Positions 2,898 to 63,916 are shown, counted from the first letter of the stretch. The stretch: 64,000 nt of DNA from a virus (IMGVR_UViG_3300010429_001883:84473-148472); one strand, 5' to 3'. Notes: generated by a model not told the origin, from the sequence alone. Numbers and translations: made by a program.

Positions 2898-4595
2898 ATG
2901 GAAAACAATGATAACAATGATGAGATAACTGCTGTAGCAGCATACGATCAGCTACTAGAAACAAAGTTGATGGAACCCCATTCATTTGAGAATGGTCGTT
3001 TGGTTGTTGTGCGAAGAACCGATTTTATGGATAAAGTGTCAATGCGTTCTATCACTAAACCAGATTATGTTGATAGGGGATCTTTTTATTTTAAGTATGA
3101 TAGAGAGCGGATAGTAAACCCTGAATTTGATTTTCAGCAAGTATTTACTTATTACCATAATGAGCCTCTAATTGAGAGGGCAATATCTAAACGTGTTAGT
3201 TTAATGTTCAAGAATGGTTGGAAGATAGTAGGTAAGGATAAGAGCCTAGTAAAGCAAATCAATGAAAGGTTTTTTGAGAAATGCTTGATTAGTGGTAAGA
3301 CTCCTACTAGTTTTCTTATTGAGTTATGTGAATTATTGCTTAGGTATAGCAATGCATTCATTTATAAGAAAAGAGTAGCTTCTGAAGAAACCAATGAATC
3401 GGGTGTTGTTTATAAGGTTGGTAAAAAAATAATTAAACCTACAACTACTTACCAACTTATAAGCCCGCTTGTGATGAAGCCAAAATTAGATAAAGATGGC
3501 AGAATCATTCAATGGCTTCAATATTCTGTTGATAAGTCCAGAGAAGTTGCTAAATATAACCCGAACGATATAATTCATTTGCATATGAATAGGGAAACAG
3601 GGTTTATATTCGGTAAGCCAAAGATTTTATCAATAGTTCAAGATGTTGATGCTCTTAGAAGAATAGAAGAAAACGTGCAAATGCTTATTGCTATTCACTT
3701 GTTTCCTCTGTATCAGTATATAGTAGGTACTGAAGAGCGTCCTGCAAAAATTCTTCCCAACGGCACAACGGAAGTAGATGCAGTTCAAGAAATGGTAGAA
3801 TCTCTTCCTACTCAGGGCGTTATTTTTACACCAGAGCGGCATAAAATTCAGGCAGTATCCACAGATAGTGTTATGGATGTAAACCCATACCTGAGTTATT
3901 TTAAGAATAGATTGTATACTGGTTTGGGTGTTTCTAGTGTCGACATGGGCGAAGGCGATACTTCTAATAGAGGGACAGCAGTTACTATTTCTCAAGCATT
4001 GAAAGATTCAATCGGCTTTGATCAAACACTGATTTCTGAAATGCTCAACGCTACAATACTTAAGGATATTATTTTAGAAATTCCAGGGACAAAGAACGAA
4101 CTTGTTCAGTTATTAATGAGCACCAACTTCAGATTCTTAACTATTGATGTTGATGAGAAAATAAAGAAAGAAACACATGCTCAGGCTCTATATAATTCTG
4201 GGGCAATTTCCCACAATGAGATGAGAGACGCCGTTAACCAAGATCCTTGGGTTAGTGAGCAAGATCTTATTGATAATACTACGACTGGAATTAAGTTTAA
4301 ATTCCAAGTTGTGTTGGCAGAGCTAGCAGCCAAACTTAAGTCGCAAATGACTACAGCTTCGGCTGGAGGTACAGAACCGAAGACCTCTGCAGCTAAATCC
4401 TCTGCATCCACTGAAAGATACACAAGTAACATACTTAGGCCCGAAAATGCACAAGGAAAGAAGCTTGATCCTAAAAGACTTACCAATAGTTTGGATTGGT
4501 CGGCGTTTGGCCTAGATGCGGAAACTGATTCAGATAAGATTAACACAATCTCGGAATGGCTTATAGAAGAGATAGATAAGATCTTTTTAACTTAA
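2898..4595 (+). CDS. Portal protein
   Basis: 565 aa; portal-like sequence (ERAISKRVSLMFKNGW, LLRYSNAFIYK, DIIHLHMNRETGFIFGKP, LYTGLGVS); position just before protease and capsid genes. Confidence 0.85.
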   Translation: MENNDNNDEITAVAAYDQLLETKLMEPHSFENGRLVVVRRTDFMDKVSMRSITKPDYVDRGSFYFKYDRERIVNPEFDFQQVFTYYHNEPLIERAISKRVSLMFKNGWKIVGKDKSLVKQINERFFEKCLISGKTPTSFLIELCELLLRYSNAFIYKKRVASEETNESGVVYKVGKKIIKPTTTYQLISPLVMKPKLDKDGRIIQWLQYSVDKSREVAKYNPNDIIHLHMNRETGFIFGKPKILSIVQDVDALRRIEENVQMLIAIHLFPLYQYIVGTEERPAKILPNGTTEVDAVQEMVESLPTQGVIFTPERHKIQAVSTDSVMDVNPYLSYFKNRLYTGLGVSSVDMGEGDTSNRGTAVTISQALKDSIGFDQTLISEMLNATILKDIILEIPGTKNELVQLLMSTNFRFLTIDVDEKIKKETHAQALYNSGAISHNEMRDAVNQDPWVSEQDLIDNTTTGIKFKFQVVLAELAAKLKSQMTTASAGGTEPKTSAAKSSASTERYTSNILRPENAQGKKLDPKRLTNSLDWSAFGLDAETDSDKINTISEWLIEEIDKIFLT

Positions 4596-4677: not shown

Positions 4678-4689
4678 ATGGAGGGCGAG

Positions 4690-6624
4690 ATGGCCGATAA
4701 AATTATATTACCAAGTTTTATGGATACGATTGAAGCGGAGTTGAACAAAGATGATGCCAACCTTGCGTGGAAGAACTTTAAACAACAGGATAGTTCTAAT
4801 GTTGTTAGGGGCCTTTATGTAAAGGCAGTTGCTACTCACGCAGATAAAATAATTAATGGTCGTATATATGTCAGAGATAGGGTTGCTGCTGGTAGCCAGA
4901 CATTTATAAAGCCATTTCCTAAGCCAGTTTCTAAACAACATTCTGATGCAGATCCAATTGGTAGGGTTATAGAGCAAAAGTTTATTGATACAATTGATCT
5001 GTTGGGGCCTAAGTTTTACTCATTTAAACAGCTTACTTCTAAAGTACATCGGGATAAGTACATAGATTTTTTAGCTGATAACGTTCTTTTTAAAGACAAT
5101 AATTTAGGCACCGGTTACATTGAATTAGGTATGGACATCACAGATAAAGAAGCAATTGAAAAAGTTATGGATGAACGATACCTTACAATGTCAATTGAAT
5201 TTGATACAGATCACTATTATTGTAGTGCTTGTTATGCCGACTGGAAGGCTGGGGAAGTGTGTGAGCACCGGCCAGGTCAGGTTGTTGAGGAGCGCCCTGT
5301 TTTCAATATTACAGATAAGTTGATTTATAAGGGTATTGATTTTGTCAATAAGCCTGCCGACGACGGTTCAATTGTTATTCATAAGGGCGAAAAGCCGGCG
5401 CATGTTGATGCCTATGTTTTACGAACTTATGAAGATAAAATGACTTATTTTAAAGATCACCTGGAGGATTTTAGTATGTTTAAACAACTATTAGAGGGTT
5501 TAAAGGCCGGAGAGAAAATTAGTATAGATTCCCTTTGGGAAGCCGAAGATTTTAATAGCTATGAGCTTTATAAATTTCTTGGTATTGATGAGAAGCATCA
5601 ATTAACAGAAGAGGGCTACGCCGCACTACCTAAATCTAAATATTGTGGTTTTGGTAACTCGTTGCCAATTGTGGACTCTGTTCACTTTAATGCCATTAAA
5701 GAGTTTCTTAAACTATTTGGGCCTAGTGATGGAGTTAGCAAGGTTCGCAATCGTGCTTACTATGAAGCACAAAAACTTGGACTACTTCCTTCTTCTGAAG
5801 TAACGATTGAGTTAGCTACCGGTGCTGACAATGCCAATGAAACTTGGTCTATTAAATCAAACGACGATGTAGCTAAACTTTGCCATAAGCTGTGGGAAAC
5901 AAACATTGATTCTGAAATACCAGAGCAAGTTAAACAGAGAATGCTGATCCTAAATCTAGATGCCGAAGAGCTTAAGAATCAGTTTGTTGAACAAAAAGCA
6001 GCCCAAGACAGTGCTGAGGTCGAAGAGACCAAAACAGAAGAGGAAACAAAGGAAGAGATAAAAGAAGAGATTCAAGAGCAAGCCGATAGTGCTGAGCCCA
6101 AAGATGATACTGAACAGAAAAAGGAAACTTCTGTAAATGATTTGTATACTATTTTTACGAGTTTGGGAGAAGACCAGCAATGTGAGTTTCGCTCTTTGAT
6201 AGGAATGGATTCCAATATTGTTCAGCTTGAAGATAAGATAGGGGCCCTTCAAGCTGAGTTGGAAAAAACAAATAAAGAGCTAGAAGTTCTTAAAGCAGAG
6301 TATGAAAATAAAACAAAAGAGATTTTGGATTACCATTCTGCTTTAGCAAGCGCTGTTGTTGACCTAAGGATGATTTCAAGGAAACCTGAAACAACTAAGG
6401 ACAATTACTCAAGAGAAACAGCAACGAAAGAATTTGCCGGTAGAACAAAAAGCTCATTAATCGATTCTTTGAAGGATTTAAGATCTGAACTTTTCGATCC
6501 CTCAGATGAAGGGGCACCTGAAGAGACCGGAAAAGATGCCGTTGTTGCCAAAGTTAAAGAAGGGCTTGGTAATGCGGTTGATCAGAGTGAATTCTTTAAG
6601 ATTTTTAGACAACGGAATTATTAA
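4690..6624 (+). CDS. Prohead maturation protease fused to an acidic coiled-coil scaffold region
   Basis: N-terminal protease-like motifs (ATHA...INGRIY, KPVSKQH...PIGRV, RYLTMSI, CSAC...CEH, IDFVNKPADD); Glu/Lys-rich coiled-coil C-terminus; between portal and capsid. Start placed at ATG 4690 behind GGAGG (4680-4684); ORF track starts at 4678. Confidence 0.8.
   Translation: MADKIILPSFMDTIEAELNKDDANLAWKNFKQQDSSNVVRGLYVKAVATHADKIINGRIYVRDRVAAGSQTFIKPFPKPVSKQHSDADPIGRVIEQKFIDTIDLLGPKFYSFKQLTSKVHRDKYIDFLADNVLFKDNNLGTGYIELGMDITDKEAIEKVMDERYLTMSIEFDTDHYYCSACYADWKAGEVCEHRPGQVVEERPVFNITDKLIYKGIDFVNKPADDGSIVIHKGEKPAHVDAYVLRTYEDKMTYFKDHLEDFSMFKQLLEGLKAGEKISIDSLWEAEDFNSYELYKFLGIDEKHQLTEEGYAALPKSKYCGFGNSLPIVDSVHFNAIKEFLKLFGPSDGVSKVRNRAYYEAQKLGLLPSSEVTIELATGADNANETWSIKSNDDVAKLCHKLWETNIDSEIPEQVKQRMLILNLDAEELKNQFVEQKAAQDSAEVEETKTEEETKEEIKEEIQEQADSAEPKDDTEQKKETSVNDLYTIFTSLGEDQQCEFRSLIGMDSNIVQLEDKIGALQAELEKTNKELEVLKAEYENKTKEILDYHSALASAVVDLRMISRKPETTKDNYSRETATKEFAGRTKSSLIDSLKDLRSELFDPSDEGAPEETGKDAVVAKVKEGLGNAVDQSEFFKIFRQRNY
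5476..6624 (+). CDS. Putative nested in-frame scaffold protein (internal start, 382 aa)
   Basis: GGAGG at 5463-5467, then an in-frame ATG at 5476 right after the protease domain. Confidence 0.5.
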   Translation: MFKQLLEGLKAGEKISIDSLWEAEDFNSYELYKFLGIDEKHQLTEEGYAALPKSKYCGFGNSLPIVDSVHFNAIKEFLKLFGPSDGVSKVRNRAYYEAQKLGLLPSSEVTIELATGADNANETWSIKSNDDVAKLCHKLWETNIDSEIPEQVKQRMLILNLDAEELKNQFVEQKAAQDSAEVEETKTEEETKEEIKEEIQEQADSAEPKDDTEQKKETSVNDLYTIFTSLGEDQQCEFRSLIGMDSNIVQLEDKIGALQAELEKTNKELEVLKAEYENKTKEILDYHSALASAVVDLRMISRKPETTKDNYSRETATKEFAGRTKSSLIDSLKDLRSELFDPSDEGAPEETGKDAVVAKVKEGLGNAVDQSEFFKIFRQRNY

Positions 6625-6644: not shown

Positions 6645-7580
6645 ATGGCTAGAAATACTTACGGACAGTATACCGCAACTTCACTAACACCTGTGGGGCG
6701 CGGTGAAACAACTCCTGGCGTTGAATTGTGCGAATCAGTAGTGCCCTGGATTGGTAGTAGAGCACTACCGGCTCCATGGCTCCCCATTAAGCGTTGGGAT
6801 GAGCATGCCAAAAGCGGCGTGGTTATCTCAGTAGGTGTGGCTGTTGGTTATGATATTAATGGTTATCTTGTTCCCGCCGGCATGGTTGGGGGCACAACCA
6901 CAGTTACTTATACTTCTTATGACGTAGATATGGGCGTCATCAACGTTGCGGACGGAGAGCCTGTCGAAACTGGTGACATCGGAAGTGTAACAGTTCCTTC
7001 AGGTCTATTGGGAGGCACTAGCGGGGTTATTCCTGTTGGTTTTGCTTCTTATAATTATTATCAACATCTCGGTGGGTTTACAGCTACTGGTACATATGCT
7101 TCTGATTATGGGTATACAGTAGATAATGACAATCCCATCAAGTATAGACTACACAACACATCTAAAGAAGATCTAGTTGCATTTACTTGTGACTATGTAA
7201 TTGAAGTACCTTGGATTGGTACGGCTGAAGATTCTATCTCTGGACTAACTACTAAGGCTTTGTCCTATGCTCACGCATATGGCACATTCTCTTATGGTGG
7301 GTTTGTGAAGGTCGATGCAAAGGGTATGTATATTCCTTCAACTACAAATTATGATAATTTGTTTGTTGGTCAGGTTCTTGGTTACAGAACATACCCTGCT
7401 GACGCTCTAAACAGAGTAAAGACGGCGTATGAAGGCGCGACTAATACTAGCTGGTCAATGCCCGGCAGTGCTACTGGTGGTGTGCCGAGAGCTATTCATT
7501 TAGCTACTGATGGCGCTTACTATGGCGGAGATACAACTTCTCGTGCCTGCACCAGCATAATCATTAATTTCCAGAAGTAA
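6645..7580 (+). CDS. Head decoration or minor capsid protein
   Basis: 311 aa, Gly/Thr-rich beta protein directly before the major capsid gene; GGAGG RBS. Confidence 0.65.
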   Translation: MARNTYGQYTATSLTPVGRGETTPGVELCESVVPWIGSRALPAPWLPIKRWDEHAKSGVVISVGVAVGYDINGYLVPAGMVGGTTTVTYTSYDVDMGVINVADGEPVETGDIGSVTVPSGLLGGTSGVIPVGFASYNYYQHLGGFTATGTYASDYGYTVDNDNPIKYRLHNTSKEDLVAFTCDYVIEVPWIGTAEDSISGLTTKALSYAHAYGTFSYGGFVKVDAKGMYIPSTTNYDNLFVGQVLGYRTYPADALNRVKTAYEGATNTSWSMPGSATGGVPRAIHLATDGAYYGGDTTSRACTSIIINFQK

Positions 7581-7597
7581 TGGAGGGGTGTATAATT

Positions 7598-8881
7598 ATG
7601 AACGGCAACTTTAAAGACTACGAGGATTATCAGAATCAGTACGCCCAAATGAAGCACATCTGGGCAACCAACGGGTTCGATTTTGATCCCGTTGATAAGC
7701 GGCCCCTTCCGAAGCGTCTATCCCTGAAGGATACTTTGGCATTACCTAATGCCACTTTTTTGATTCCACAGGTATTGACTGAATTTGTCAGAGAGGGCAT
7801 TGAACCTCTGCTTGTTGGTCCTTCGCTACTGCGGAGAATTGATTATAAAGCAGGCATGACAATTAGCTTCCCCGCCATTGGCGGTATGGCTGCTGCTGAT
7901 TTGGCTCCTGGACAAGAATTTCCGGAATACGGGCCAGACTTGGCCGGCGCTGAACAGACAGAGATCAAGATCTCCAAAAGCGGTCTTGCTCTAAAGTTCC
8001 TAGACGATATAATCGAACAGGATAACTTTGGTCTTATTAGACTCTGGGTTCAGTTGGCTGGTAATGCTTTGGCTCGGCACAAGGAAGTCAAAATTTTCAA
8101 CTATATCGATGCGTCTGGTGTAACACTTTACAACAACGCGACAACTCCTGCTACCTATGAAACACCAATGATTGGTAAAACAACCGGTCGTAATGCTGCT
8201 GGTGCTTTCAATGGTACTCTAACTCATGACGACTTCTTCGAGGCAGTTGCTTTTGGGATGTCTCAGGGTTATGTGTATAATACGGTTCTTATGCACCCAT
8301 TGACTTGGTCAATGTGGGTTAAGGACCCATATATGCGGGCGTTTGCTCTGCAGGCCGGCCGTCCAGATTTCTTCCAAAACTGGACAGGCAACCGCGCAGT
8401 AAAGGGCAACAATTGGAATGATCCTATCCAGGAACTTGGTCCTACCGCTCCTGGTCAGAATGTGACATATGGTTCAGAACTCTCAACCATGCCACAGTGG
8501 CTGAACACTGCTCCGCAGTTCCCCAGCTACTTCCCATTCCCGATGACAATAATAGTGTCACCGTTTATGCCTATCACTGAAACAACAGATTCCTATGGGA
8601 ATAAGATGAAGCTAACTGACATCATCCTATTTGATCGTAGCAATCTTGGTGCTCTCGTTGTGAAAGACGAGATTCAGACAGCGGAGTGGAAAGAACCTTT
8701 CCGCGATGTAACCAAGATGAAGATCTGGGAATCCTATGCAATCGCTATTTTGAATCAGGGCCAAGGAATTGGCGTACTACGCAATATCCGCGTTGATTCT
8801 AATCAGCTGGTGCTACCTGCTCAGACTACACTCGATGTTTCTAGCATCCTAGCCACCACTGGTTGGACAGGTTTCGCATAA
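7598..8881 (+). CDS. Major capsid protein (HK97 fold expected)
   Basis: LIPQVLTEFVREGIEP, KISKSGLALKF...IIEQDNFGLI...AGNALARHKE, NTVLMHPLTW; followed by a strong terminator. Likely start ATG 7598 behind GGAGG; ORF track starts at 7580. Confidence 0.85.
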   Translation: MNGNFKDYEDYQNQYAQMKHIWATNGFDFDPVDKRPLPKRLSLKDTLALPNATFLIPQVLTEFVREGIEPLLVGPSLLRRIDYKAGMTISFPAIGGMAAADLAPGQEFPEYGPDLAGAEQTEIKISKSGLALKFLDDIIEQDNFGLIRLWVQLAGNALARHKEVKIFNYIDASGVTLYNNATTPATYETPMIGKTTGRNAAGAFNGTLTHDDFFEAVAFGMSQGYVYNTVLMHPLTWSMWVKDPYMRAFALQAGRPDFFQNWTGNRAVKGNNWNDPIQELGPTAPGQNVTYGSELSTMPQWLNTAPQFPSYFPFPMTIIVSPFMPITETTDSYGNKMKLTDIILFDRSNLGALVVKDEIQTAEWKEPFRDVTKMKIWESYAIAILNQGQGIGVLRNIRVDSNQLVLPAQTTLDVSSILATTGWTGFA

Positions 8882-12196: not shown

Positions 12197-14110
12197 ATGG
12201 CTGATTATACTAGATTGCCCGGTGTATATGTAAAAATTAATGATGGTGGTCTTCGTGTAACTCCTCCAGTCAGCACCGCTCCACGTGTACTGATTATTGG
12301 AACAGCCGGGAAGGGTCCTGCCTATATGCCAATTGAACCATTGAGCATGGTTAGGGCCAAAACAACTTTTGGAAGCTCTGGCAGCTTACTTCAGAAATAT
12401 GCTGAGGCTATTGCGGGCGGCGCGGAAAACGTAACACTTTTCCGTGTTGGTTCAGAGGCTTCTACAATAACCGGTGTCGGTTATGTAAGTGCTGAAAGTC
12501 CTGGTTTGACTGTTACATTTGAAGATCATTCTCCTACTATCGGAGATGATTACTATATTGGTTACAGGGCGGGTATACTTGAAGTTTATACTTCTAGAGG
12601 TACCACCGTGTATAGTAATGATCCTGATGATCCGATAGATCTTCGGGTAGTTAGTATTAGTGGCACCAACACAAATGCTGGATCAGATATTTTAACTTCT
12701 GGCACAACGGTAGATTTCGATCATGCCGTGTTAGTTGATGATTTATCTGTATCCGATGTTACCTTTACATTAGGTGACGATGGCGTTGATATTAGTAATA
12801 GACGTTTGTTTGAAGTATGTTATACTGCATTTGCCTTACTGGATGGCTATGATTCAGATATTGTTGTCATAGCTGGTGCTTATGCAGATAACCCAAACGT
12901 AGCTTACTATGAAACTTCTGTTACTGGATCTGTTACCTCTGTGGTAGAAAATTATCCAGTAGGAGATACTAGTGTGTTGGGTTGGTTTAGAGCCGATTCT
13001 AACATTAACTCTAGCGAACTTTATGACTATTATTGGTCTGAAGAAGTTTGGACAGACGCTGGAGCCATGGCTGTTAGTGCCCTAGATGCTACCTATCTAG
13101 CTAACTATGCCGCTGATCCCGATACTTATCCTATCACGTTTGCTTCTGCTGCGGATAGAATTGCTAAGGGTTTCAGAGAAGTTAGCTTTGCCTATTTGTT
13201 AGCAAATTATTGCTATCAGATGACTAAAAATAACAATGAAATGATTGGCGTAATTGCCATTCGTGGACCTCGTGATACAAGTGGCAGATCTTCTGCTAAG
13301 CTGTATGATGTTAATCGGTGGGTCGGTGTAATGCCGACTTACAATGATGCTGGCGTTGTCACCAATGACGGCAGCGGCTTGCTTGCCTTCCCACTAACAA
13401 TGGGTTGTTCTGCTTCTAGACTTAATAATCTAGTGCTTGGACAAACAGAAGGCCGCATTCCTGGCATCTTTGCTACCGATGATGAATACATCGATGGTAC
13501 TGTTCTGTATGACGATAACAACTTTAAAATTGATATCGGTGCATATATTAGTATCGTTGGTGAGCATCCAATGATTGTAATTGGTAATTATCCGTATGTT
13601 GGACCTATTGATGGTCTTTATGCTGGTATGATCTCTCTGTTGGACCCGAAAGATGCTCCAACATTTAAGCCTCTTGGCAGTGTCAAGAAGCGCTGGAGAT
13701 TAAGCAAAGCCAAGCACGATGAGCTTATCCAAGCTAAGATTGTGTTGATGGACGATGTTCCGATTAAGGGGTATGCGATTGTTGATGCCATGACGGCTGC
13801 TACAGACGATTCTGATTTCCGTAGACTAACAACAGTTCGTATTCTTCACTTAGTTAGCCAGCGTATGCGGGCAGTGACAATTCCTTTTATTGGTACTGCT
13901 GCGCTGATTACTCCGAAGAAAATTGCTTTGGCTACAGCGATTGAAGGTGAATATGCCAAACTAGCCAAACGTGGATATCTATCGGATTATCAGTTTGAAA
14001 TTGAAATTAGCAAGTATGACCAGGTTAATGGTAACGTTAAAATTTACCACACCTTCATACCCGCTTTGGAAACTCGTAGAATTACCCATACCTACCAGTT
14101 TACGATCTAA
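12197..14110 (+). CDS. Contractile tail sheath protein
   Basis: 637 aa; N-terminal LPGVYVKINDG...VLIIGTAGKGP; C-terminal DAMTAA...SDFRRLTTVRI...FIPALETRRI. Confidence 0.9.
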   Translation: MADYTRLPGVYVKINDGGLRVTPPVSTAPRVLIIGTAGKGPAYMPIEPLSMVRAKTTFGSSGSLLQKYAEAIAGGAENVTLFRVGSEASTITGVGYVSAESPGLTVTFEDHSPTIGDDYYIGYRAGILEVYTSRGTTVYSNDPDDPIDLRVVSISGTNTNAGSDILTSGTTVDFDHAVLVDDLSVSDVTFTLGDDGVDISNRRLFEVCYTAFALLDGYDSDIVVIAGAYADNPNVAYYETSVTGSVTSVVENYPVGDTSVLGWFRADSNINSSELYDYYWSEEVWTDAGAMAVSALDATYLANYAADPDTYPITFASAADRIAKGFREVSFAYLLANYCYQMTKNNNEMIGVIAIRGPRDTSGRSSAKLYDVNRWVGVMPTYNDAGVVTNDGSGLLAFPLTMGCSASRLNNLVLGQTEGRIPGIFATDDEYIDGTVLYDDNNFKIDIGAYISIVGEHPMIVIGNYPYVGPIDGLYAGMISLLDPKDAPTFKPLGSVKKRWRLSKAKHDELIQAKIVLMDDVPIKGYAIVDAMTAATDDSDFRRLTTVRILHLVSQRMRAVTIPFIGTAALITPKKIALATAIEGEYAKLAKRGYLSDYQFEIEISKYDQVNGNVKIYHTFIPALETRRITHTYQFTI

Positions 14111-17927: not shown

Positions 17928-18499
17928 TAAAAAAGAAGTTATATAGAATGGTTGTTGAAAATAAACTTGATATTGACTTTACACAACCAACATTAAAAAC
18001 ACTAGATCGAGCTAAGACCGATATAGAATGGTTACCTTTTCCTATGCGGCACTATCTGTCAGCGCTAGATGTTTTTAGAACCAGTGTGGTAGGTGGCGAA
18101 GAAAAAATTAGACAAATGGCGGCAGGCACTATCCTTAGCATTGGAATGATAATATTATCATTTTCTGGGTTATTCGCTGATAAAGATAAAATGGACTCTG
18201 ACTTTAAAAGGGCTAAAGAAAACTGTGGAAATTACTTTAATCATATACGTAATTTAGCTGCTATTCATTTTGGTTACAAATTTGAAGAGTCTGCCGAATG
18301 GGACTACGATAAATTAATAGAGATTGCTGCAAGGCTAAGTCTTGTCACTTCTCAAGATTTATCTATTAGCAAATTAACTGAAACTAAGAAACCCAGTGCG
18401 ACAATAAACGCTAACGAGGTTACAATAACAAAGGGAGCAGCAATCCCAGAACAAGTAGTTGATTTTCATAATACTAAAACATTTACTAAAGAAAATTAA
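17924..18499 (+). CDS. Putative tail assembly chaperone
   Basis: 191-aa helical protein between the tube genes and the giant tape-measure-position gene; call is positional only. Confidence 0.4.
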   Translation: MIKKKLYRMVVENKLDIDFTQPTLKTLDRAKTDIEWLPFPMRHYLSALDVFRTSVVGGEEKIRQMAAGTILSIGMIILSFSGLFADKDKMDSDFKRAKENCGNYFNHIRNLAAIHFGYKFEESAEWDYDKLIEIAARLSLVTSQDLSISKLTETKKPSATINANEVTITKGAAIPEQVVDFHNTKTFTKEN

Positions 18500-21400
18500 T
18501 GGCAAAATCCTCGGTTAATGACATTTTTGTAGATATATTCTTAGACTTGGAAGCAAGTTTTGATCCTACGTCTGAACAATCCTATCAAAATTTAAAACAA
18601 TTAAATAAAAGAATTCTTAATTCGAGGGCTACTAAACGAAGCCACCGCGGCATTGTTTCTTCCCAACACAGAGCAGCGCATGTTATTGATTTAGCGTATT
18701 CAACATTTAATTCTAACAAGAAGATAAGTAAGCCGTTAACAAGTTTTATTAAAGAAAGACAGCTTGCTGCCGATCCTAAAAAATTTGTAGGCGATTTCTG
18801 GAAAACCACAGAAGAACCAAGAAAACTTTTGGAAGAGTTGCGGTCATTTGCATCTGGTAAAACAACAGCAACAAAATTTATACAACCCATAGATGCATTA
18901 ACTGAGTTTTTAGAGCATGTTGATGAGCAAGCCAAGTTAGCAGCCAAGGTTGGCAAGAAAGTAAGAATCAGTGGGTGGTCATTACAGTATGATCTATCTG
19001 TACTAATAGGCAATATTGAGGGAATACTTTCTTCTGGAAAGAGAAAAGATCCGGCAATTGCTGCTAAACTGCATAAACTATCTTCTGTATATAATCAATT
19101 TGTTGATCATATTCAACGAAAAACAATTACTACCCACAGCCTAGAAACTGGGTTTTTGAAATACCGCGCCGCCCTGGTTGCTAAGGCATATGAAAAGTAT
19201 GGTCAATCATTTATTTCCAACACTAAACTTAATGAAAGCGCCGTCAAGCATATATCGAATGTTATAAGGAAAGGGGATGCTGCTGCTTTTGATGAATTAA
19301 TAAGTGGTCGAACGGCTAAATTTGGTGGATATAGGGTAGAAGATGTTTTAAGGTTTTTAGATATTTATGGTGGAAAAGAAAAACACCGCGCAGCAATGGA
19401 TGTTTTACAAGAAACAGACATTGCTTTAAGGTTTAGAGATTTTAATCCATTTGTAGACGATCCTTTTGAATATGCTAAAAAGGTTGGTGGTAAGTCTGTT
19501 ACTGCTATAACTGATCAGCAGGTTTTTTATAAACGAGCCATAAAAGAAATTATAGTGCCAGATAGGATGGGACGAGCGGTGGCTGGGGAAGCGGCGGCTG
19601 CGGTTGGGTCAGCCTCTTCACAAATAGTTAAAGGCCAAAGTTCAATTATATCAAGACTTGCTCTAGGTAAAATTTCTTCCAACAAAGCAATAAAGATAGC
19701 TGGCATTGGTGCTCTTGCTGTTGTTGGTTTAGGTGTTGTGCAGAGACTTTGGGATAGTGCTGGCGACGATGATTATTCTAATAAGCATGAAGCTCTAATA
19801 GGAAGTTCACATAAAAAGTTTGGTATTTTTGGTTCTGGTTACCGCGGAGGTAGGAGTGACTATCTAGATCGAAAGATAGAAGAGGCACGCTCTCGTGGAT
19901 CGATGTTTGTTGGTGCTAGCTATGTTGGATTGCCAACAAGAGAGATTAGACAGAAATTAGTTTCTAATATAGTTGCAAATAGCCCATATGGTGGGGCTGG
20001 TGGTTTTGGCGGAAGAAAGAAAAATACAACATATTCAGAAACGGCCGCTGGTTTTGGTACTTTTGCTCACCAAATAGCTCAACGTGAAATGATGGATACC
20101 GGCAGTTACACCGGTAAAACTTTGACGTGGCGACAAAATTTTGCAGATGCGATAATAGGTCGGGATAGAGGAAAGGGAATTACTCCCGAATATAAGGCTG
20201 TTAGCCAAGAAACCGGCATGTATGGCAGTATAGACGTACTGCAAAATGAAGTTATTATTGAACATAAGTTTGTTACAGCTGGAATTTTTGAGACAATTGT
20301 TAGAACTGGAAAACCATTCCCGTCCCATGTGCTCCAGATAAATGCATATATGGGTATGCTTGGTAAACGAAAAGCACAACTAATATACACTAACAGAGAA
20401 AATCTTCAACAGAGAATAGTTTTTGATGTTGATTTTGGTGAAAAAGCATATAAGCAAACTGCTAGAAAAGTAAGAAAAGCCTCTAGGCAGGCAATGCGTG
20501 ATGCATTAGAAATGGGAGTTGATGTTTCTAGTTTGCCTGTTAATGAGGACATTACTGGACAAGAAACACAAATACCTTCAATGGAAGAACTGAAAGAAAG
20601 GTATCCTGTTGAACTCTTCCATGCGTTAACAGTTAGACGCGGTATTCCAACTAATCTTGAAAAATTAAGAGAAGATCGGGACTTAGAACAACAACGTGTT
20701 CGTGCTAGGAAAGGTAATATAATTGAGGGCATGAGACACGGGTGGTTTGGCAGTTCTAGAAAAGATAGAACAGACTTCGGTTCTGGTTTTAGACCAGAAG
20801 ATGAATATGGTACTCCTGATAACGTATGGACATCCAGGGCGGTAGCTGTAGCTGCTGTTGGTGGTTTTGCCTATGGGATGGCAAAACACCCGGTTTGGCT
20901 TTATAATAAAATTAAGAAACTTGAAGATAGAAGTCCTTTACAAATACTTAAAACTTTTCGTTTATCTGAAAGACTTCAGCCTCGTGTTATCAGTGCTCTT
21001 GATAGCAAAGGTAAACAAGTAATCCCAGCATCTGCTTTATTAATACGTGGCGGTTCTGCGATGCGCGGCCGATCTTATGCGTACGCAGATACCTCTCTAA
21101 CAAAACTAGGGATGTTGGTGCAAAATTTACTTGGCGAATTACCAATTGATGAGAAAGGTAATTTAGTTTTTACAAAGGCGGAAGGAAATTTTTATAAAAT
21201 AGCTGTAGGGGGGCAAGAGAAATTTGTCACCTTTGCGTCAGCAAATACTAGGCTAGCCTCTGCGGCGTTTAGATATAATAAGCGAACAGGAGAGAAAGCT
21301 CTTTCTGATTTTGAAGTAGCAGCTACCAAAAGAATGTCAAATATGCCAGAATGGTTTAAAGCTTTTGCTGGCATGCATAACGCTAAGAAAACTAAGACAG

Positions 21401-24400
21401 AAGAGTTAATTTATAAAGCTGGATTACAAATCCAAAAATTAAAATTATCTCAGATAGAACAAAAATTAACGGGTGTTGCTGATGATGCCGTTGCACCAAT
21501 ATATGCTACAACTAAAAGTACGCCAATTTTAAGAACAGCAGATATATTTTTACAAAAATCTAGGCGCGCAGCTCTTGGAGGACTTGAAAGATTTAATAGA
21601 TTGATTGCTGAGTTTGGAGTGGCGTTGCCGGCTGGTTCTTTTAATAGGGTTTTAACGGTTCCATGGAACGACGTAGTAGCTCGTACCCCTGTGGGTAAAA
21701 AACTTGGGATGCAGGTTGGTAGGCGCGGTTTTATAAATCAATTATTAGCTAAAAGGTATTTCCCCATAGCAGCAATTGCTGCGACTGCCGGGCTTTTGGA
21801 TTATGTTACTGGACATACAGTATCAGATATGCCTGTAGAAACATATGCTAATACACAAATAGGCATGTCTACTGTTGCTCGTATGACTGGACTGAATAAA
21901 TATAAAGAACTTATAAATACAATTTCTCCTGTTCCAGATTATGGGATTGCTCTAGCAACACTATCTACAGCAGCGATAGGTTCTCAAATATATGCTAATA
22001 GGCTTGCAGCTTCTAATAATATTGCTCCTGCTTTGTCGCGCCTAGGAGTTACTCAACAATTTTCTACATATGAAAAATTTTCCACCCGTGCTGGACAGGC
22101 TCTTGCCAGTGAATCCTATACGCCTGCTTATCAAACACTGAAGAAAAAGTTGTTAACAAAAAGCCTAAAGGGTGCGGCTTTACTTGCAGCTCCTTTTATT
22201 GCCAGTGCTCTTATACCAGAAGAATCTCCTCAGGAATTAAGAGATATTTATAGTGGCCGACAAGAAATTGAAGTCATGAAAGGGCGATGGTGGGAAACAT
22301 CTTCTACTCCATATGAAGGCGATAAGACTAAAGAATTTCGTCAGCATTTCGTTGCTAGGTTCTTAAATAGGCAATGGATAAAAGATGAATATGGCTCTGA
22401 AGGTGAATATTGGAAAAGAAATTTGGGCACCCCAATTGGGTGGTTTAATTTACTAACCGATCCATATGGCAAAGAAGTAGAAGCTGCGAAAAGAGGACGT
22501 AACTTTCCTTTAACAGAAGAACTATTTTTAGATGTACCTTTTTCTGATATAACCGGCTTAAGATTTATTGGGCATGCGTTAAAGCCACCAAAATTTATGC
22601 ATGCTCGAAGTGTTGAAGATTTTGCTAGGATGTATGAATCAGAGAACCCAGACTTAGAGCCATCCTATGAGCTTGGAGGACTGAAGCCACTGGTTCCTCA
22701 AATGCCGTGGAGCTTAAGGAATATGGCTGCCAGAACTTTTTCTCAATATACAACAGTAGCAGGGTTACCTGGTTTTATAGGAACAACTACGTCCAAAAAA
22801 TTGTTAGGCGAAGAAAATGTTTTTATTGATAAGTATACCCCAACGCTACAGGCAGCCAATGAGATAGGTAATCAAGAACGTTGGTTTTATGGATTAGAAT
22901 TGGGCGGCGCTGCCTTTTTGTCTGAGCCTGTTCGTAGGTACATTCAACGAACACCGCGACAATTTGGTGCTCCCTATAACCCAATACCAAATGATTTGCC
23001 CGACTGGTTATCTGGAAAAAATGAGTTAAAAGATTTAGCAACGGGCGATGCTATAGCAAAAGTTGGATTCAACGCTAGATATTTGCCTCCTAGGGGGGAA
23101 GGCGAGGAGTACAACGAACTACAAAAGGCAGAAGCCTTAGCACATGTGCAGCCCTATAGTAGAAGATTAACTAGGATGTTTTCTGCATTAGATGAAGTCG
23201 CTCTTGAGCCTATGGCTAGATACCGAGTTGAGGAACTGAAGCAACAAGTAAAAGCAATAAAAGAAAGAGAAAAATTTTCTGAAAACACGTTTGCAACGCC
23301 GTTGGCTGGATATAGTGGGACTGTTGAGCAAGTTGAGGGCGAATATTTAAAACTAAAAGAATACCCTTTTAAGGAATTTAAAGTAGGGGGATTTGCTTTA
23401 AATTATTATCAGACGGCAAAGAATTTTATTAGAACTGAAAATATTTCTATACAAAGGGCCGCCATGCGTGCCGCTGAAGTTCAAGAAAAAGCTAGAGAGC
23501 ATATTGAGAAACAGCTTACACCGGGAACTAGAATTGGCTTTGCTGCAGCCGCCGGTGCGCCAGAAAATTTACGTCAAGTTGATATAGCTGTATATACATC
23601 TAATGGCCTTTTAAATAGAGAAGTAAAAGATAAGTATAATTTACCAATAGAGCAAAATAAAGCCATAAGCCAACTTATGTATTCTGCCCCCACTAGGGCA
23701 ATGGGAACAGTGGCTGAATCTATATTTCATGACCCGGCTCTTCCAACAATGGCAAAATTTGCTGGTAAATATACAGCACTAGAAAAATATAAAAAAGAAA
23801 GGGTCTATGGAAAGAAAATAAAACTTTGGGATAACCCAATAGAAAGTTTTATTATGCAACCTGCTTATGGTGCCTCACGTCGATTTGGGTCTGTTGTACC
23901 CTTTAATCCTTTTTCTGGATTTGATGATGAATATAATAGCATAGAGGGTTTGAAGGGGAATGTTCACCAGCAATTTGGAGTATTCGGTAGCGGATTTATA
24001 AATAAACTTGGCAATATAATGGAAACAACCTTATCAAAGATATTGTTTTCTGGTAAGGGGATGTCTCCGCTTGTAAGTAGTGAAAAATATTTATTAATTG
24101 ATGCCGATAAAACATTATTTGGAGGTTTTCTTGACACGGCATTTAACGCTGTTAACAGAGTAAGCCCTAGCATAGCCAGAGATTTATATGCTTCTAGCAC
24201 AGCTCGATTTATTTCTTCTAGAATTCCTGTAACAAAACAAGGAAAAAATGTTTTATCTATGGCTGAAAGAGCCAAAAGTTTTGGTTTTAAACCAATACTT
24301 TTTACCGACAGGCCGATAGAACACGCCAGCTCTACAATAGGGGCACTGAAGCGCTCCGTAGGGGATAAGCGGATTGAAAATTTATTCGAAGGAAGGTATT

Positions 24401-25515
24401 ATTTTGGTGCTGGCAAAAAGCAGTCTTCTGTTTTACCAGAATCTTTTTTAATAGATGACAGAATTACAGAGTATGGTAGTTTAGTTAAAGGAGGGCTACA
24501 CCCAGGAAGTGAAGGTATTGCAACAGCATTCATTAGACAAACTACTCCCTTTGGTTCTGGTTTTGCTTCATCAGATCGATATGTGCCTGTTCCTGGATAC
24601 ACTGAAAACATCAGAAAGTATAATGAATATTTTGATAAATTAGAATACATAAAATGGATAAAACTTGCAAAACAGGCAGAGGAAAAAGGACACGATAGGC
24701 TAATATCTTACTATATGGCGAAAGCTAGGGGCACGATGATTGGTATAAACCCCCTAATAGCAGAACCAGAACAAGTTATGCAGGTTTTACCAAAATCTGA
24801 GCGTCCTTATTTTGCTGCATTCGCTAATGAGCCCAATCCCGAGAAGCGACAGGAAATTATGGAAATGCTTCCTGCATCTCAAAGAAGACTAATGGCTGGG
24901 ACTTGGTTTAGGCAAATGAATCATGCGTCTATGTTGGAGGAAGAAATTCCACAGTATCGGGAGTATGTTCGTAATGAAGGATATATGACAGATGCTGAAA
25001 AACAAGTTATTCCTGGGCTTGCTAAGGTATATGGTGGAGCAGTTGAGCCTGCTGCTCTTGATCGTATGGCAGAAATTTATCAGTTTTTAGATGAAAATAA
25101 TCTTCCACTTCCGAGTGAAAATTGGAAAGGGTGGCAAGCACAAATTGATATGCAAGATCTGAAACTTATGTATTTAAAAAGCATAGGTGAAGATATCCAT
25201 GAATATGATCTGTGGGAAGACCGTGAAAGAATGCTTGCTAGAAAACCATACTTGAAAAACACGCTGGGTGCTTTACGAAACAACTTTAATCCGTCTGGTA
25301 CCATTAGTGTCATGGATGGGATATTAAAAGACAATGGAGTATTAGCTAATAGGTATTCTTCTACACCTACAACTGAGACTAGTTTTACTCTTAACTTTGG
25401 TGTTGATCCTGATACTATGTTATATGATACTGATTTTAATAGAGCAATAGATGATTCAATGAGAAAGACACGGCCAGGCTTTGATAATCTAGACCTTTAT
25501 CTTGGGAGAATGTAG
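18499..25515 (+). CDS. Giant tape-measure-position multidomain protein (DEDDh exonuclease, PD-(D/E)XK nuclease, SNase-like, HAD phosphatase, several membrane-like helices)
   Basis: 2338 aa. DLE/YD/HRAAMD (D16, E18, D165, H296, D301); GSID...IEHK...QINAY (D579, E588, K590, Q613, Y617); GTVEQVEGEY...VYTSNGLLNRE; IDADKTL...FTDR...IDDR (D1868). Basic, Ala/Gly-rich helical core with apolar segments. Confidence 0.75.
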   Translation: MAKSSVNDIFVDIFLDLEASFDPTSEQSYQNLKQLNKRILNSRATKRSHRGIVSSQHRAAHVIDLAYSTFNSNKKISKPLTSFIKERQLAADPKKFVGDFWKTTEEPRKLLEELRSFASGKTTATKFIQPIDALTEFLEHVDEQAKLAAKVGKKVRISGWSLQYDLSVLIGNIEGILSSGKRKDPAIAAKLHKLSSVYNQFVDHIQRKTITTHSLETGFLKYRAALVAKAYEKYGQSFISNTKLNESAVKHISNVIRKGDAAAFDELISGRTAKFGGYRVEDVLRFLDIYGGKEKHRAAMDVLQETDIALRFRDFNPFVDDPFEYAKKVGGKSVTAITDQQVFYKRAIKEIIVPDRMGRAVAGEAAAAVGSASSQIVKGQSSIISRLALGKISSNKAIKIAGIGALAVVGLGVVQRLWDSAGDDDYSNKHEALIGSSHKKFGIFGSGYRGGRSDYLDRKIEEARSRGSMFVGASYVGLPTREIRQKLVSNIVANSPYGGAGGFGGRKKNTTYSETAAGFGTFAHQIAQREMMDTGSYTGKTLTWRQNFADAIIGRDRGKGITPEYKAVSQETGMYGSIDVLQNEVIIEHKFVTAGIFETIVRTGKPFPSHVLQINAYMGMLGKRKAQLIYTNRENLQQRIVFDVDFGEKAYKQTARKVRKASRQAMRDALEMGVDVSSLPVNEDITGQETQIPSMEELKERYPVELFHALTVRRGIPTNLEKLREDRDLEQQRVRARKGNIIEGMRHGWFGSSRKDRTDFGSGFRPEDEYGTPDNVWTSRAVAVAAVGGFAYGMAKHPVWLYNKIKKLEDRSPLQILKTFRLSERLQPRVISALDSKGKQVIPASALLIRGGSAMRGRSYAYADTSLTKLGMLVQNLLGELPIDEKGNLVFTKAEGNFYKIAVGGQEKFVTFASANTRLASAAFRYNKRTGEKALSDFEVAATKRMSNMPEWFKAFAGMHNAKKTKTEELIYKAGLQIQKLKLSQIEQKLTGVADDAVAPIYATTKSTPILRTADIFLQKSRRAALGGLERFNRLIAEFGVALPAGSFNRVLTVPWNDVVARTPVGKKLGMQVGRRGFINQLLAKRYFPIAAIAATAGLLDYVTGHTVSDMPVETYANTQIGMSTVARMTGLNKYKELINTISPVPDYGIALATLSTAAIGSQIYANRLAASNNIAPALSRLGVTQQFSTYEKFSTRAGQALASESYTPAYQTLKKKLLTKSLKGAALLAAPFIASALIPEESPQELRDIYSGRQEIEVMKGRWWETSSTPYEGDKTKEFRQHFVARFLNRQWIKDEYGSEGEYWKRNLGTPIGWFNLLTDPYGKEVEAAKRGRNFPLTEELFLDVPFSDITGLRFIGHALKPPKFMHARSVEDFARMYESENPDLEPSYELGGLKPLVPQMPWSLRNMAARTFSQYTTVAGLPGFIGTTTSKKLLGEENVFIDKYTPTLQAANEIGNQERWFYGLELGGAAFLSEPVRRYIQRTPRQFGAPYNPIPNDLPDWLSGKNELKDLATGDAIAKVGFNARYLPPRGEGEEYNELQKAEALAHVQPYSRRLTRMFSALDEVALEPMARYRVEELKQQVKAIKEREKFSENTFATPLAGYSGTVEQVEGEYLKLKEYPFKEFKVGGFALNYYQTAKNFIRTENISIQRAAMRAAEVQEKAREHIEKQLTPGTRIGFAAAAGAPENLRQVDIAVYTSNGLLNREVKDKYNLPIEQNKAISQLMYSAPTRAMGTVAESIFHDPALPTMAKFAGKYTALEKYKKERVYGKKIKLWDNPIESFIMQPAYGASRRFGSVVPFNPFSGFDDEYNSIEGLKGNVHQQFGVFGSGFINKLGNIMETTLSKILFSGKGMSPLVSSEKYLLIDADKTLFGGFLDTAFNAVNRVSPSIARDLYASSTARFISSRIPVTKQGKNVLSMAERAKSFGFKPILFTDRPIEHASSTIGALKRSVGDKRIENLFEGRYYFGAGKKQSSVLPESFLIDDRITEYGSLVKGGLHPGSEGIATAFIRQTTPFGSGFASSDRYVPVPGYTENIRKYNEYFDKLEYIKWIKLAKQAEEKGHDRLISYYMAKARGTMIGINPLIAEPEQVMQVLPKSERPYFAAFANEPNPEKRQEIMEMLPASQRRLMAGTWFRQMNHASMLEEEIPQYREYVRNEGYMTDAEKQVIPGLAKVYGGAVEPAALDRMAEIYQFLDENNLPLPSENWKGWQAQIDMQDLKLMYLKSIGEDIHEYDLWEDRERMLARKPYLKNTLGALRNNFNPSGTISVMDGILKDNGVLANRYSSTPTTETSFTLNFGVDPDTMLYDTDFNRAIDDSMRKTRPGFDNLDLYLGRM
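19762..19842 (+). repeat. Peptide repeat 1, left type (GDDDY...HKKFGIFGSGY)
   Basis: Precedes the PD-(D/E)XK domain; resembles repeat 3. Confidence 0.65.
20713..20790 (+). repeat. Peptide repeat 2, right type (GNIIEGMRHG...RKDRTDFGSGF)
   Basis: Follows the PD-(D/E)XK domain. Confidence 0.65.
23911..23997 (+). repeat. Peptide repeat 3, left type (FSGFDDEYNSIEGLKGNVHQQFGVFGSGF)
   Basis: Precedes the HAD domain; resembles repeat 1 and shares IEG with repeat 2. Confidence 0.65.
24490..24564 (+). repeat. Peptide repeat 4, right type (GGLHPGSEG...IRQTTPFGSGF)
   Basis: Follows the HAD domain; R-x-x-T-[DP]-FGSGF ending similar to repeat 2. Confidence 0.6.
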
Positions 25516-61471: not shown

Positions 61472-62881
61472 ATGTTAATAAAAGGCCGAATATATGATTT
61501 ACCTAAGATGGTTGTTGTCCACCCGACATCGGTGACCATACCTGGCGGCGAGGATTCAACATATCAATTTACAGCTTCGGTTTATAATACAAGTCAAAAA
61601 GCTTTAGAGTGGACTATTATTTCTGGTGGGGGGTTCATTGATGCCGATACAGGTCTTTATTATGGTCCTTCAGGAATTATTCCTGCTACTACAACAGTTA
61701 TTATACAGGCTACTTTAAGAATTGATCCTAGTATTTATGGTAGGGCTACAATAACAATTGAAGAAAATAGAGCGATTACTGTAACTGTTACTCGTGTTGA
61801 TGTATATGATAACTTTATTGGTGACATTCATTCCATGAGCGAATTTGTACAGAGGGCCGTTCTTTATCCTGATGAAGTTGAAGGAGGAATAACAGGGTGG
61901 ATACACAGTAGCGTTGTTACTGGAGACAGCTACGCTATTGCTGATAGTGTTCCTATTTATAGTGAATATTGGTTTGAAGCTTCTACAGTAAATGCCACAG
62001 GTGGAACTGAATACCCTGAAATTTCTGGATATATAATTTCCAATAGTTACACAAATTTAGCCACTAGGCTTGAAAATCTGGATAATGTAGTTGTAGTTTA
62101 TCCTATTATTACATCAAGAGATGATTATGCTACGTGTCCTGGTTGGCCTGCGAATGTAACTACAACGTCTCCAGAAGGTGTTGTTATAGGAATAGATACT
62201 AGTTACCTTGGAGGCGGTGGAGATCTCCACAAAGAGTATACGTTGCTCTGGCGCCGCGGTGACGATATGTTAACGTGGTATAATTGCCCAACAGGCATGG
62301 TAACTGCCATGGTTCCTGGGAAAGCTCCAGGGGGACAAGTTATTATATTTAACCCGAATCCTATAGATATAAACGGAGACGGTTGCTATACTAATTTTCA
62401 TTCGTTTAATATAACAACAAGAGATGTTGTTAAGCCAGACTTGGCGTTGTACAACTACTCCTCTAATTATGAATTTAATGATGAAGATTGCTGGAATTTT
62501 TATATTCCAATAGCTACTCCATCTTCAGCAGTGGATTATATAACTGTTGATATGACAGACTCTTGGCAGACAGAAACTATACCAGTTTATTATATGCCTT
62601 ACATGGAAAGTGCCTCACCGCCTTCTGGCAGTGTTGGAACTGAGATAACACTTTACGCTGGCGAAAACGGACGTTTCTACGATGATATGAATTTTATCAT
62701 AAATGATACTCATGTAATAAATAATTTTACCATAACTGATGGAAATTACTTGACTTTTATATTACCAGATGTTAATATGTTAGGTGCTATAGATTTAAAG
62801 ATACAATGGAAATCATTTGAGTATTCTAATTATGGGGTTTATTTAACTGCCGATTTCCCAAAATTTTTTATAGTTGTTTAG
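61472..62881 (+). CDS. Ig-like protein (N-terminal Big_2-like, C-terminal IPT/TIG-like)
   Basis: VHPTSVTIP...YQFTASV...LEW...GFIDADTGLY; SASPPSGSVGTEITL...LTFILP. Confidence 0.65.
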   Translation: MLIKGRIYDLPKMVVVHPTSVTIPGGEDSTYQFTASVYNTSQKALEWTIISGGGFIDADTGLYYGPSGIIPATTTVIIQATLRIDPSIYGRATITIEENRAITVTVTRVDVYDNFIGDIHSMSEFVQRAVLYPDEVEGGITGWIHSSVVTGDSYAIADSVPIYSEYWFEASTVNATGGTEYPEISGYIISNSYTNLATRLENLDNVVVVYPIITSRDDYATCPGWPANVTTTSPEGVVIGIDTSYLGGGGDLHKEYTLLWRRGDDMLTWYNCPTGMVTAMVPGKAPGGQVIIFNPNPIDINGDGCYTNFHSFNITTRDVVKPDLALYNYSSNYEFNDEDCWNFYIPIATPSSAVDYITVDMTDSWQTETIPVYYMPYMESASPPSGSVGTEITLYAGENGRFYDDMNFIINDTHVINNFTITDGNYLTFILPDVNMLGAIDLKIQWKSFEYSNYGVYLTADFPKFFIVV

Positions 62882-62893
62882 GATTTATAATTT

Positions 62894-63505
62894 ATGAATA
62901 CTAAATTAGAAATTAATGCATTAAAAGCAAGAATGTCCGCCCTTGAAGACAATCTTGCTAGAGTTATTGCTCAATTAAATGGATTAGCAACAACTAAAGC
63001 ACTATCTAATTTGAGTGCTTTGTTTAATGCGGACGCAAATACCAAGACATCTCAAATAGCTTCATTAACTTCTACTGTGGCTAGCCATACAGCACTTATT
63101 GCTACTTTGATGGAGTATCTTAATTTATCAACCGGGGCAACTGGAGAAACGGGGGCAACAGGAGCAACTGGGCCGACCGGTGCAACCGGAGCTACGCCGC
63201 AGGTGTTCGCGCTGGACGAGCCCGGGGCGCTGGTGGACGGGACGCTGTGCACATGGGTGGCTGCTGCCGGCAGTATCACGGCGGCGGCGGGTGTCGTGGT
63301 GACCGGGCCGACTGGTGCAATGACTCTGACGTTAAACAAGAATGGTGTTGCATCGGCTGTGCTGACGTGGGCGCCGAGCGGAACCACGGCGACATCGAGC
63401 GGCCTGCCGGTGACGCTGACGGGAGGGGAGACGATGACGGCGGTGCTGGCGACATCGGTTGGCGCTGCCAACCTGACGGCTAACTTCCGGGGGGTGCTGT
63501 CGTGA
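62894..63505 (+). CDS. Short fibre protein: coiled coil, collagen-like repeat, beta-tip
   Basis: 203 aa; heptad N-terminus, (G-X-T)7, C-terminal part encoded in high-GC DNA. Confidence 0.65.
   Translation: MNTKLEINALKARMSALEDNLARVIAQLNGLATTKALSNLSALFNADANTKTSQIASLTSTVASHTALIATLMEYLNLSTGATGETGATGATGPTGATGATPQVFALDEPGALVDGTLCTWVAAAGSITAAAGVVVTGPTGAMTLTLNKNGVASAVLTWAPSGTTATSSGLPVTLTGGETMTAVLATSVGAANLTANFRGVLS
63131..63196 (+). repeat. Collagen-like G-X-T repeat (7 units)
   Basis: TGATGETGATGATGPTGATGAT. Confidence 0.85.
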
Positions 63506-63693
63506 GGATCATGACCATTTATGAAACCGAGTCGGACTGGTGCGCGCTGGTGGAGCTGTCGAGCGGCGCCAAAACCACGCTGACGTTCGCCCGGCAGCCG
63601 AACGAGGCCGAGGTCGAGGCGTTGGCGGCGGCCCTGGAGCTGCCGGTAGAGACGACGCCGGAGGTGGAAGCCGAAGATGGCGCCGTCATCTAA
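63502..63693 (+). CDS. Small acidic hypothetical protein (high-GC segment)
   Basis: 63 aa, GTG start overlapping the previous stop, GC-rich third codon positions. Confidence 0.55.
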   Translation: MRIMTIYETESDWCALVELSSGAKTTLTFARQPNEAEVEALAAALELPVETTPEVEAEDGAVI

Positions 63694-63913: not shown

Positions 63914-63916
63914 GGC

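Follow-up and report, generated by a model that had tools for sequence, protein, structure and literature searches.

A ~38-residue motif at the module junctions of a giant phage virion protein and of related multi-enzyme polyproteins

The 64,000-nucleotide stretch of viral DNA analyzed here (IMGVR_UViG_3300010429_001883:84473-148472, the window) encodes a giant protein, P0001, whose enzyme modules are separated by copies of a ~38-residue motif. This separator motif, found in a group of large uncultured phages, is restricted to junctions of independently folding modules and occurs in two types of carrier: free polyproteins encoded next to the terminase, and a tail-block protein resembling gp145 of phage 0305phi8-36, the type to which P0001 belongs. 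In gp145-like proteins it is present only where a foreign module joins, and is absent or decaying without such a module. Our leading reading, which we rate at a little under an even chance, is that the motif is a processing signal between modules, cut in trans by a protease. The order in P0001 is exonuclease, transmembrane (TM) helix, motif, PD-(D/E)XK nuclease, motif, helix, core, motif, HAD-like phosphatase, motif, core (Table 1), so that at least two catalytic domains (DEDDh motifs, PD-(D/E)XK, HAD-like) are joined in one phage polypeptide.

RESULTS AND DISCUSSION

Four copies of one motif, conserved at the protein level

A first-pass annotation of the window had reported four FGSG[FY] motifs in the open reading frame (ORF) at 18499-25515. 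All four are real, starting at 19828, 20776, 23983 and 24550 (amino acids (aa) 444, 760, 1829 and 2018), and they are the only copies in the six frames of the window; FGSG was found neither elsewhere in those frames nor in the remainder of the 148-kb virus record. Chance or a low-complexity repeat is ruled out by the 0.004 copies expected from composition and by 20000 shuffles, none of which gave more than one copy. A DNA repeat or assembly artefact is also ruled out, as there is no extended repeat and the copies share no stretch beyond 13 nt, a length explained by codon coincidence: three copies have TT[TC]GGTTCTGGTT in common and the third copy reads TTC GGT AGC GGA. In 56 distinct copies at related loci, the codon of the invariant Ser is TCN in 45 and AGY in 11; because both codon families are used, selection acts at the protein level, as had been proposed from the window's own copies.

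The same annotation distinguished a left and a right kind of signal. We found instead that all four copies align as variants of a single module, together with the FGSG sites present in 19 of the 150 best core relatives. The motif alignment, built from 32 copies and later from 352, gives the ~38-aa consensus [FI]SGKDDxYNTIEGLxHGGxAxxxR[KR]xxTDFGSG[WYF]xG, and across the 352 aligned copies conservation reaches 100% for G/S/G, 99% for F-1, 93% for the aromatic residue at +3, 89% for R-7 and 87% for T-3. The short 'left' variant, four residues shorter, is found only in the clade of P0001, P0002, P0003 and P0006, outside which the flanking copies on both sides are canonical; the 'HPGSEG' variant of copy 4 is also present in P0006, P0206 and P0242. 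Paired flanking copies are well kept, for example at 65/67 and 73/62 bits with the motif hidden Markov model (HMM). The motif matched no family in Pfam, PHROGs or NCBIfam. A PDB profile search returned 0 matches, an ESM Atlas query no usable match, and literature searches for the motif sequence nothing relevant and no description.

Enzyme modules between and beside the motif copies

The claim that the motifs bracket a PD-(D/E)XK and a HAD-like domain is confirmed. The first cassette matches PHROG 1706, its D...ExK and QxxxY motifs are invariant in homologues, and its nuclease core gave Foldseek matches to LHK-Exo, lambda exonuclease and Cas4 (3sz4, 3slp, 4ic1); by motifs and fold, it belongs to the lambda-exonuclease/Cas4 branch of the PD-(D/E)XK nucleases. 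In the second cassette, the HAD catalytic motifs DxDxT, S/T, K and DD are present and are kept in the 67% homologue P0002. Its nearest ESM Atlas clusters are DUF2608/Acid_phosphat_B/T5 dNMPase (score 0.93), and no Pfam or PDB sequence match was obtained. The AlphaFold2 model of this cassette is poor (4-row alignment, mean predicted local distance difference test (pLDDT) 47), with top Foldseek rows that are almost all HAD enzymes at weak E-values of 4e-3 to 0.1, in agreement with the Atlas clusters and the catalytic motifs.

Pfam gave no score for the N-terminal exonuclease module of P0001. Its ExoI/II/III residues are invariant in the three closest homologues, and relatives P0069 and P0157 have an RNase_H_2/PolB-exo match at the equivalent position. 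Together with the hydrophobic helix that follows, this module acts like extra 'cargo' joined to the core via motif copy 1, and there are core-only homologues that have neither the module nor the helix.

We rejected the possibility that the cassettes are intein or Hint splicing elements, as they are ordinary enzymes without Hint or intein matches; inteins were recognised as such, apart from the cassettes, in homologues P0004 (aa ~547-933) and P0098 (aa ~1306-1738), each with a LAGLIDADG domain. That of P0004 interrupts the best-conserved part of the core, directly after GRWWE. P0001 has no intein at the equivalent site near 22294 (between GRWWE and T, aa 1266).

Cargo exchange at two sites

Relatives of P0001 differ in cargo at two sites. 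At site 1, the PD-(D/E)XK nuclease of P0001, P0002 and P0003 is replaced in P0046 and P0069 by a staphylococcal-nuclease (SNase) domain, with the N-terminal exonuclease and the core in common with P0001; P0098 has two adjoining motifs and no cargo, and P0123, P0136 and P0090 one motif only. At site 2, P0001 and P0002 have the HAD-like cassette, P0006 a ~500-aa module of no assigned kind plus an additional motif, and P0003 a single decayed motif. P0004, P0098, P0069, P0046 and P0136 have no motif at this site, and their counterparts of aa ~1797 and ~2031 directly adjoin each other. Since the core is contiguous there, the entire motif-HAD-motif block is an insertion into a continuous core. These comparisons support cassette exchange between relatives at fixed motif-bounded sites, and the check suggested for interchangeable cargo, a search for the same core with different domains between repeats, came out positive. 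Enzymes can also be grafted without the motif: in P0005, distantly related through the core, a PD-(D/E)XK domain is embedded elsewhere in the core (aa 961-1063) and no separator motif accompanies it.

Variation of cargo at fixed motif-bounded sites is what would be seen if the motif were a recombination junction only, a shared sequence for cassette exchange between co-infecting phages with no biochemical role, and the relic at site 2 of P0003 resembles a left/right hybrid, such as a deletion through recombination between copies would leave. We nevertheless consider this account very unlikely. The DNA has no repeat beyond 13 nt and the codons differ, and a scar would decay, yet both copies stay at 60-70 bits over wide divergence. 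The motif-HAD-motif block moreover occupies a core site that is free of the motif in other homologues, and therefore did not enter by motif-to-motif exchange. The earlier suggestion of a domain-swapping junction holds as an evolutionary pattern, but DNA identity is too low to demonstrate a role in driving recombination.

Free polyproteins and the junction rule

A profile of 12 motif copies was searched against 5.8 billion clusters and matched 326 proteins at E<=10; all of the 120 matches listed had E<1e-18. Among 137 motif-bearing proteins that were examined, copy number ranges from 1 to 6 (2-6 in 125 of them), with a median spacing of 235 aa and mostly 150-300 aa. The gp145-like core is absent from 106 of the 118 newly found carriers. 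Domains that could be mapped fall one to an interval and include SNase, PolB-type and RNase T exonucleases, protein kinases (Pkinase/ABC1/RIO1) and PD-(D/E)XK units homologous to the nuclease cassette of P0001; a DnaJ-like match in one interval was weak and sub-threshold. In P0159, for example, SNase, PolB-exo, kinase and unassigned units occupy one interval each, and P0157, P0164 and P0174 are arranged likewise. The inter-motif units fell into 90 clusters under single-linkage clustering, of which 58 are singletons; as the clustering is over-merged (one cluster holds 234 units), the figure serves only as a rough indication of diversity.

In general, each junction has one copy, with n modules separated by n-1 motifs, a rule that takes the place of the scheme of matched pairs first drawn from P0001. 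A stand-alone or portable loading tag, also put forward in the first-pass annotation, is disfavoured: a search for motif proteins of 165-525 aa, made with a single query copy, returned one gene fragment, compared with hundreds of large multi-module carriers.

Related loci were collected with a single-cassette query (3 loci) and with a narrower motif alignment (17 loci). Free polyprotein genes lie directly upstream of the large terminase in phages of ~170-200 kb whose portal and protease/scaffold are homologous to those of the window. Four related virus records, among them a complete genome of 170 kb, have their motifs in the free polyprotein, and their separate gp145-like ORF is short (1186-1690 aa), with zero motif copies. 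In the phage studied here, the syntenic slot upstream of the terminase is empty and all four copies are in the gp145-like protein. With cargo on the polyprotein there and on the gp145-like protein here, cassette-plus-motif units have therefore moved between the two carriers. The slot is always preceded by a conserved protein of ~250-280 aa (Table 1) with a Cys-rich motif and a ...MVGDRQEKYKKEAALK... stretch, and the stop of its gene overlaps the polyprotein start in two of three polyprotein-bearing phages (L007, L034).

In about a dozen polyproteins (P0170, P0181, P0191, P0240, P0255, P0264 and others), the last motif is followed only by a basic tail of ~45 aa, a conserved terminal peptide ending in ...HH[IVL]G(G), and one polyprotein begins with the motif after 8 residues. 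In addition, 27 tandem copies are separated by merely 14-70 aa, often of hydrophobic character. The short post-motif spacers in such arrays (P0098 aa 755-767, P0175, P0178, P0208) often hold a conserved short element, [LV]xxDD[IV]A[FY]xx[YW].

Predicted structure and possible roles of the motif

AlphaFold2 was run on aa 392-802 of P0001 with an alignment of 36 rows, which included 32 motif copies. Confidence was high for the nuclease core (pLDDT 85-94) and low for motif 1 (28-47) and motif 2 (about 47-59), both mostly coil. From this model, the separator appears to be a linear motif placed in flexible linkers. Of all motif copies, 27-40% have a hydrophobic helix immediately before them, compared with 1-3% of random positions.

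This association is one of several that would fit an uncleaved connector or anchor. Here the motif, often with the preceding helix, would bind a common partner such as the membrane, the tail-tube lumen, the portal or the scaffold, and the polypeptide, remaining intact, would keep its enzymes strung together like beads, inside the virion or on the host membrane. Conservation extends over a long stretch whose charged and aromatic positions are those typical of docking peptides; helix and motif alternate in tandem arrays, for example in P0172 and P0098; and in gp145-like proteins a TM helix precedes the first copy. A tether or tag should suffice once per protein, yet the motif follows the junctions, is lost or decaying where cargo is missing (site 2 of P0003 and the core-only homologues), and, in the search with a single query copy, is almost never found in small tagged proteins. 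We rate the connector as somewhat unlikely.

A common factor acting at junctions is the likeliest explanation, because a plain linker needs no invariant F-G-S-G-aromatic and a tag is needed once per protein. The motif would be the recognition site of this one factor, and the simplest candidate is a protease that would cut the polyprotein into its enzymes, in P0001 the exonuclease, the PD-(D/E)XK nuclease and the HAD phosphatase. Cutting could take place during virion maturation or following delivery into the host, and with a copy on each side, a cassette could be added to an essential virion protein without loss of frame. The putative enzyme might be the phage prohead protease, a host protease or another. 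The only protease recognised in the window is the prohead protease/scaffold homologue (Table 1), which is a candidate for processing at the motif. The terminal mini-units, both the ~45-aa basic tails and the motif placed after 8 residues, look like pro-peptide-like units and fit cleavage. Phage polyvalent proteins, which are predicted or known to undergo processing, offer a precedent (PMC5512222).

Several observations weigh against cleavage by a protease in trans. The 38 conserved residues are far more than known prohead-protease sites require. Neither FGSG nor a relaxed variant is present in any other protein or frame of the window, including the usual prohead-protease substrates of the capsid module, so that the site is not shared by capsid, scaffold and portal proteins as expected of such substrates. 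The carrier gene is located among tail genes, outside normal prohead-protease territory. At site 2, cleavage would interrupt a core that most homologues have in one piece, and tandem copies with spacers of 14-70 aa make poor sense as cleavage products. The queried free polyprotein had no tblastn match among cultured phages (INPHARED), and the one isolate homologue scanned, gp096 of vB_BceM_WH1, has no separator motif. A literature search found no proteomics paper on vB_BceM_WH1, and the P23-45 paper on the tape measure protein (TMP) and RNA polymerase (TMP-RNAP) makes no statement on processing.

No peptidase family was detected with Pfam, PHROGs or NCBIfam in P0001 or in 17 other carriers scanned. 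The lack of a protease domain common to all carriers (P0001 has exonuclease, nuclease, core and HAD only, and the free polyproteins have no core) would suit a self-cleaving mini-module, in which the motif would break the peptide backbone within itself, for instance through an N-to-O acyl shift at the invariant Gly-Ser, and no dedicated protease would be needed; cargo release would then be possible in any carrier. The motif works in two unrelated carriers, its Ser is never Thr or Ala in 352 copies, and nearby His, Asp, Thr and Arg positions are conserved. Against self-cleavage, ~38 residues, predicted as disordered coil, make a small unit for autoproteolysis, several copies (e.g. P0003, R4 type) do not keep the upstream His, and there is no likeness to solved structures or known autoprocessing families. 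We regard it as quite unlikely. A portable release element of ~38 residues, which cleaves itself or is cleaved at the invariant Gly-Ser by some ubiquitous enzyme of the host, also appears rather improbable. If true, any enzyme flanked by two copies could join an essential virion protein in frame and be released once delivered, which would give a whole lineage of large phages a protein-level cassette system for shuffling injected anti-host enzymes.

Carrier family and gene setting

Judged from homology and synteny, the core of P0001 belongs to the 0305phi8-36 gp145-like family of virion proteins, which has 951 HMMER representatives at E<1e-3. P0001 has tblastn matches in vB_BceM_WH1 (gp096), Bacillus phage Edson and Moorella phage MTATph1 (5e-13 to 3e-6), and family members P0069 and P0090 match 0305phi8-36 ORF145 and Acinetobacter phage ME3. 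P0001 may be packaged in the virion, as isolate homologues of its core are annotated as 'virion structural protein' (vB_BceM_WH1, ME3, 0305phi8-36). The window is a structural gene block of a contractile-tailed phage, in which three giant genes follow each other: ORF 18499-25515, a gene of 1649 aa and one of 1970 aa with M23 peptidase and lysin domains. The gene order of tail chaperonins, gp145-like gene, gene in the tape-measure position and giant hub is common to the window, WH1, 0305phi8-36, ME3 and loci L003-L005; the giant hub after the tape-measure-position gene in the 0305phi8-36 synteny carries wall hydrolases. The tape measure of 0305phi8-36 has been assigned to orf146, the gene after the gp145 homologue (PMC2147016). 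P0001 corresponds to orf145 and is therefore a gp145 homologue and not the tail tape measure, a role that we considered and ruled out.

The His/Ser positions of the prohead protease/scaffold homologue are kept in its L007 homologue. So is a Cys cluster, CSxC...CxHRPG, within 4678-5430, which resembles a zinc ribbon inserted into the protease domain. GC content is 0.49 at 62001-64000 and 0.31-0.43 across the remaining window, and no tRNA was found across the whole window.

Table 1. Features of P0001 and its surroundings; positions refer to the window unless another locus is given
Feature	Position	Strand	Basis or remark
Giant virion protein P0001, 2338 aa	18499..25515	+	gp145-like core with three grafted enzyme modules
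DEDDh-type 3'-5' exonuclease module, N-terminal	18529..19430	+	ExoI/II/III residues in translation
Hydrophobic TM-like helix just before motif copy 1	19687..19743	+	Kyte-Doolittle 1.9 over aa 397-415; AlphaFold2 helix
Separator motif copy 1, short clade-specific variant	19741..19851	+	aa 415-451; motif HMM 39 bits
PD-(D/E)XK nuclease cassette, lambda-exonuclease/Cas4-like, without Fe-S cysteines	19864..20673 (aa ~456-725)	+	PHROG 1706, E 1.7e-12
Separator motif copy 2, near-canonical	20683..20802	+	aa 729-768; motif HMM 59 bits
Second, weakly hydrophobic helix after copy 2	20821..20886	+	AlphaFold2 helix, pLDDT about 80; equivalent TM in P0098
gp145-like conserved core, N-terminal part	20890..23898	+	Full-length alignment to P0006, P0069, P0090, P0004
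Separator motif copy 3, short variant	23899..24000	+	aa 1801-1834; motif HMM 45 bits
HAD-like phosphatase cassette	24001..24453 (aa ~1835-1985)	+	DxDxT, T, K, DD motifs
Separator motif copy 4, 'HPGSEG' variant	24454..24576	+	aa 1986-2026; motif HMM 27 bits
gp145-like conserved core, C-terminal part	24577..25515	+	Joined to N-terminal part in most homologues
Portal	2898-4595		Structural block of the window
Prohead protease/scaffold homologue	4678..6624	+	tblastn: 0305phi8-36 ORF123 'protease/scaffold', KLEB27-3 'prohead protease'
Major head protein	7580-8881		Structural block of the window
Sheath	12197-14110		Structural block of the window
Slot-preceding protein, ~250-280 aa	G000:C1:80383-80985 (L038), L007:9166-10017, L006:9017-9823, L034:5174-6001		

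Comparison with known systems

Phage polyvalent proteins are regarded as toolkits that are injected to counter host defences. The junction motif gives a direct handle, the invariant Ser, on how their modules are separated, loaded and exchanged. It also parses hundreds of unannotated giant proteins into functional units, many of them without known fold, and it shows that the same enzyme cassettes move between a polyprotein on the head side and a structural protein on the tail side. Should the motif turn out to be a compact cleavage module, it could become a tool for releasing fused proteins.

As described previously, the polyvalent proteins of phages and of conjugative elements combine nucleases, protein kinases and other conflict enzymes in single polypeptides; delivery along with the DNA is assumed, processing has been predicted and cassette-like variability noted (Iyer et al. 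2017, PMC5512222). Release is credited to internal metallopeptidase domains, and the main text mentions no repeated inter-domain separator, with 0 occurrences of 'linker' (PMC5512222). P0001 shares with them the presence of several catalytic domains in one phage polypeptide. It differs in having no peptidase domain and a 38-aa motif at the junctions, and one of the two carriers is a structural protein of the tail module. In relation to 0305phi8-36 gp145 itself, the core is homologous and the gene order the same, and the scanned isolate homologue, WH1 gp096, is motif-free.

MARTX toxins hold an exchangeable array of effectors in a giant protein, with content that varies between strains, and cutting of the linkers by an internal cysteine protease domain, at short Leu-containing sites, releases the effectors. 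The likeness lies in the exchangeable module array; here, the carrier is a phage virion protein without an internal processing protease domain or such sites. The boundary motifs of polymorphic toxins (VENN in CdiA, DPxGL in Rhs) mark the border of a constant carrier and variable cassettes and coincide with exchange points, occurring once, ahead of the C-terminal toxin. In contrast, the separator is repeated at junctions and can flank internal insertions on both sides. In the head maturation of giant phages of the phiKZ/SPN3US type, and for the internal proteins of T4, ejected virion proteins are synthesised as precursors that the prohead protease trims at short consensus sites of 3-4 residues (e.g. 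S/A/G-x-E), which are common to capsid and scaffold proteins, whereas the separator described here is long and limited to multi-enzyme carriers.

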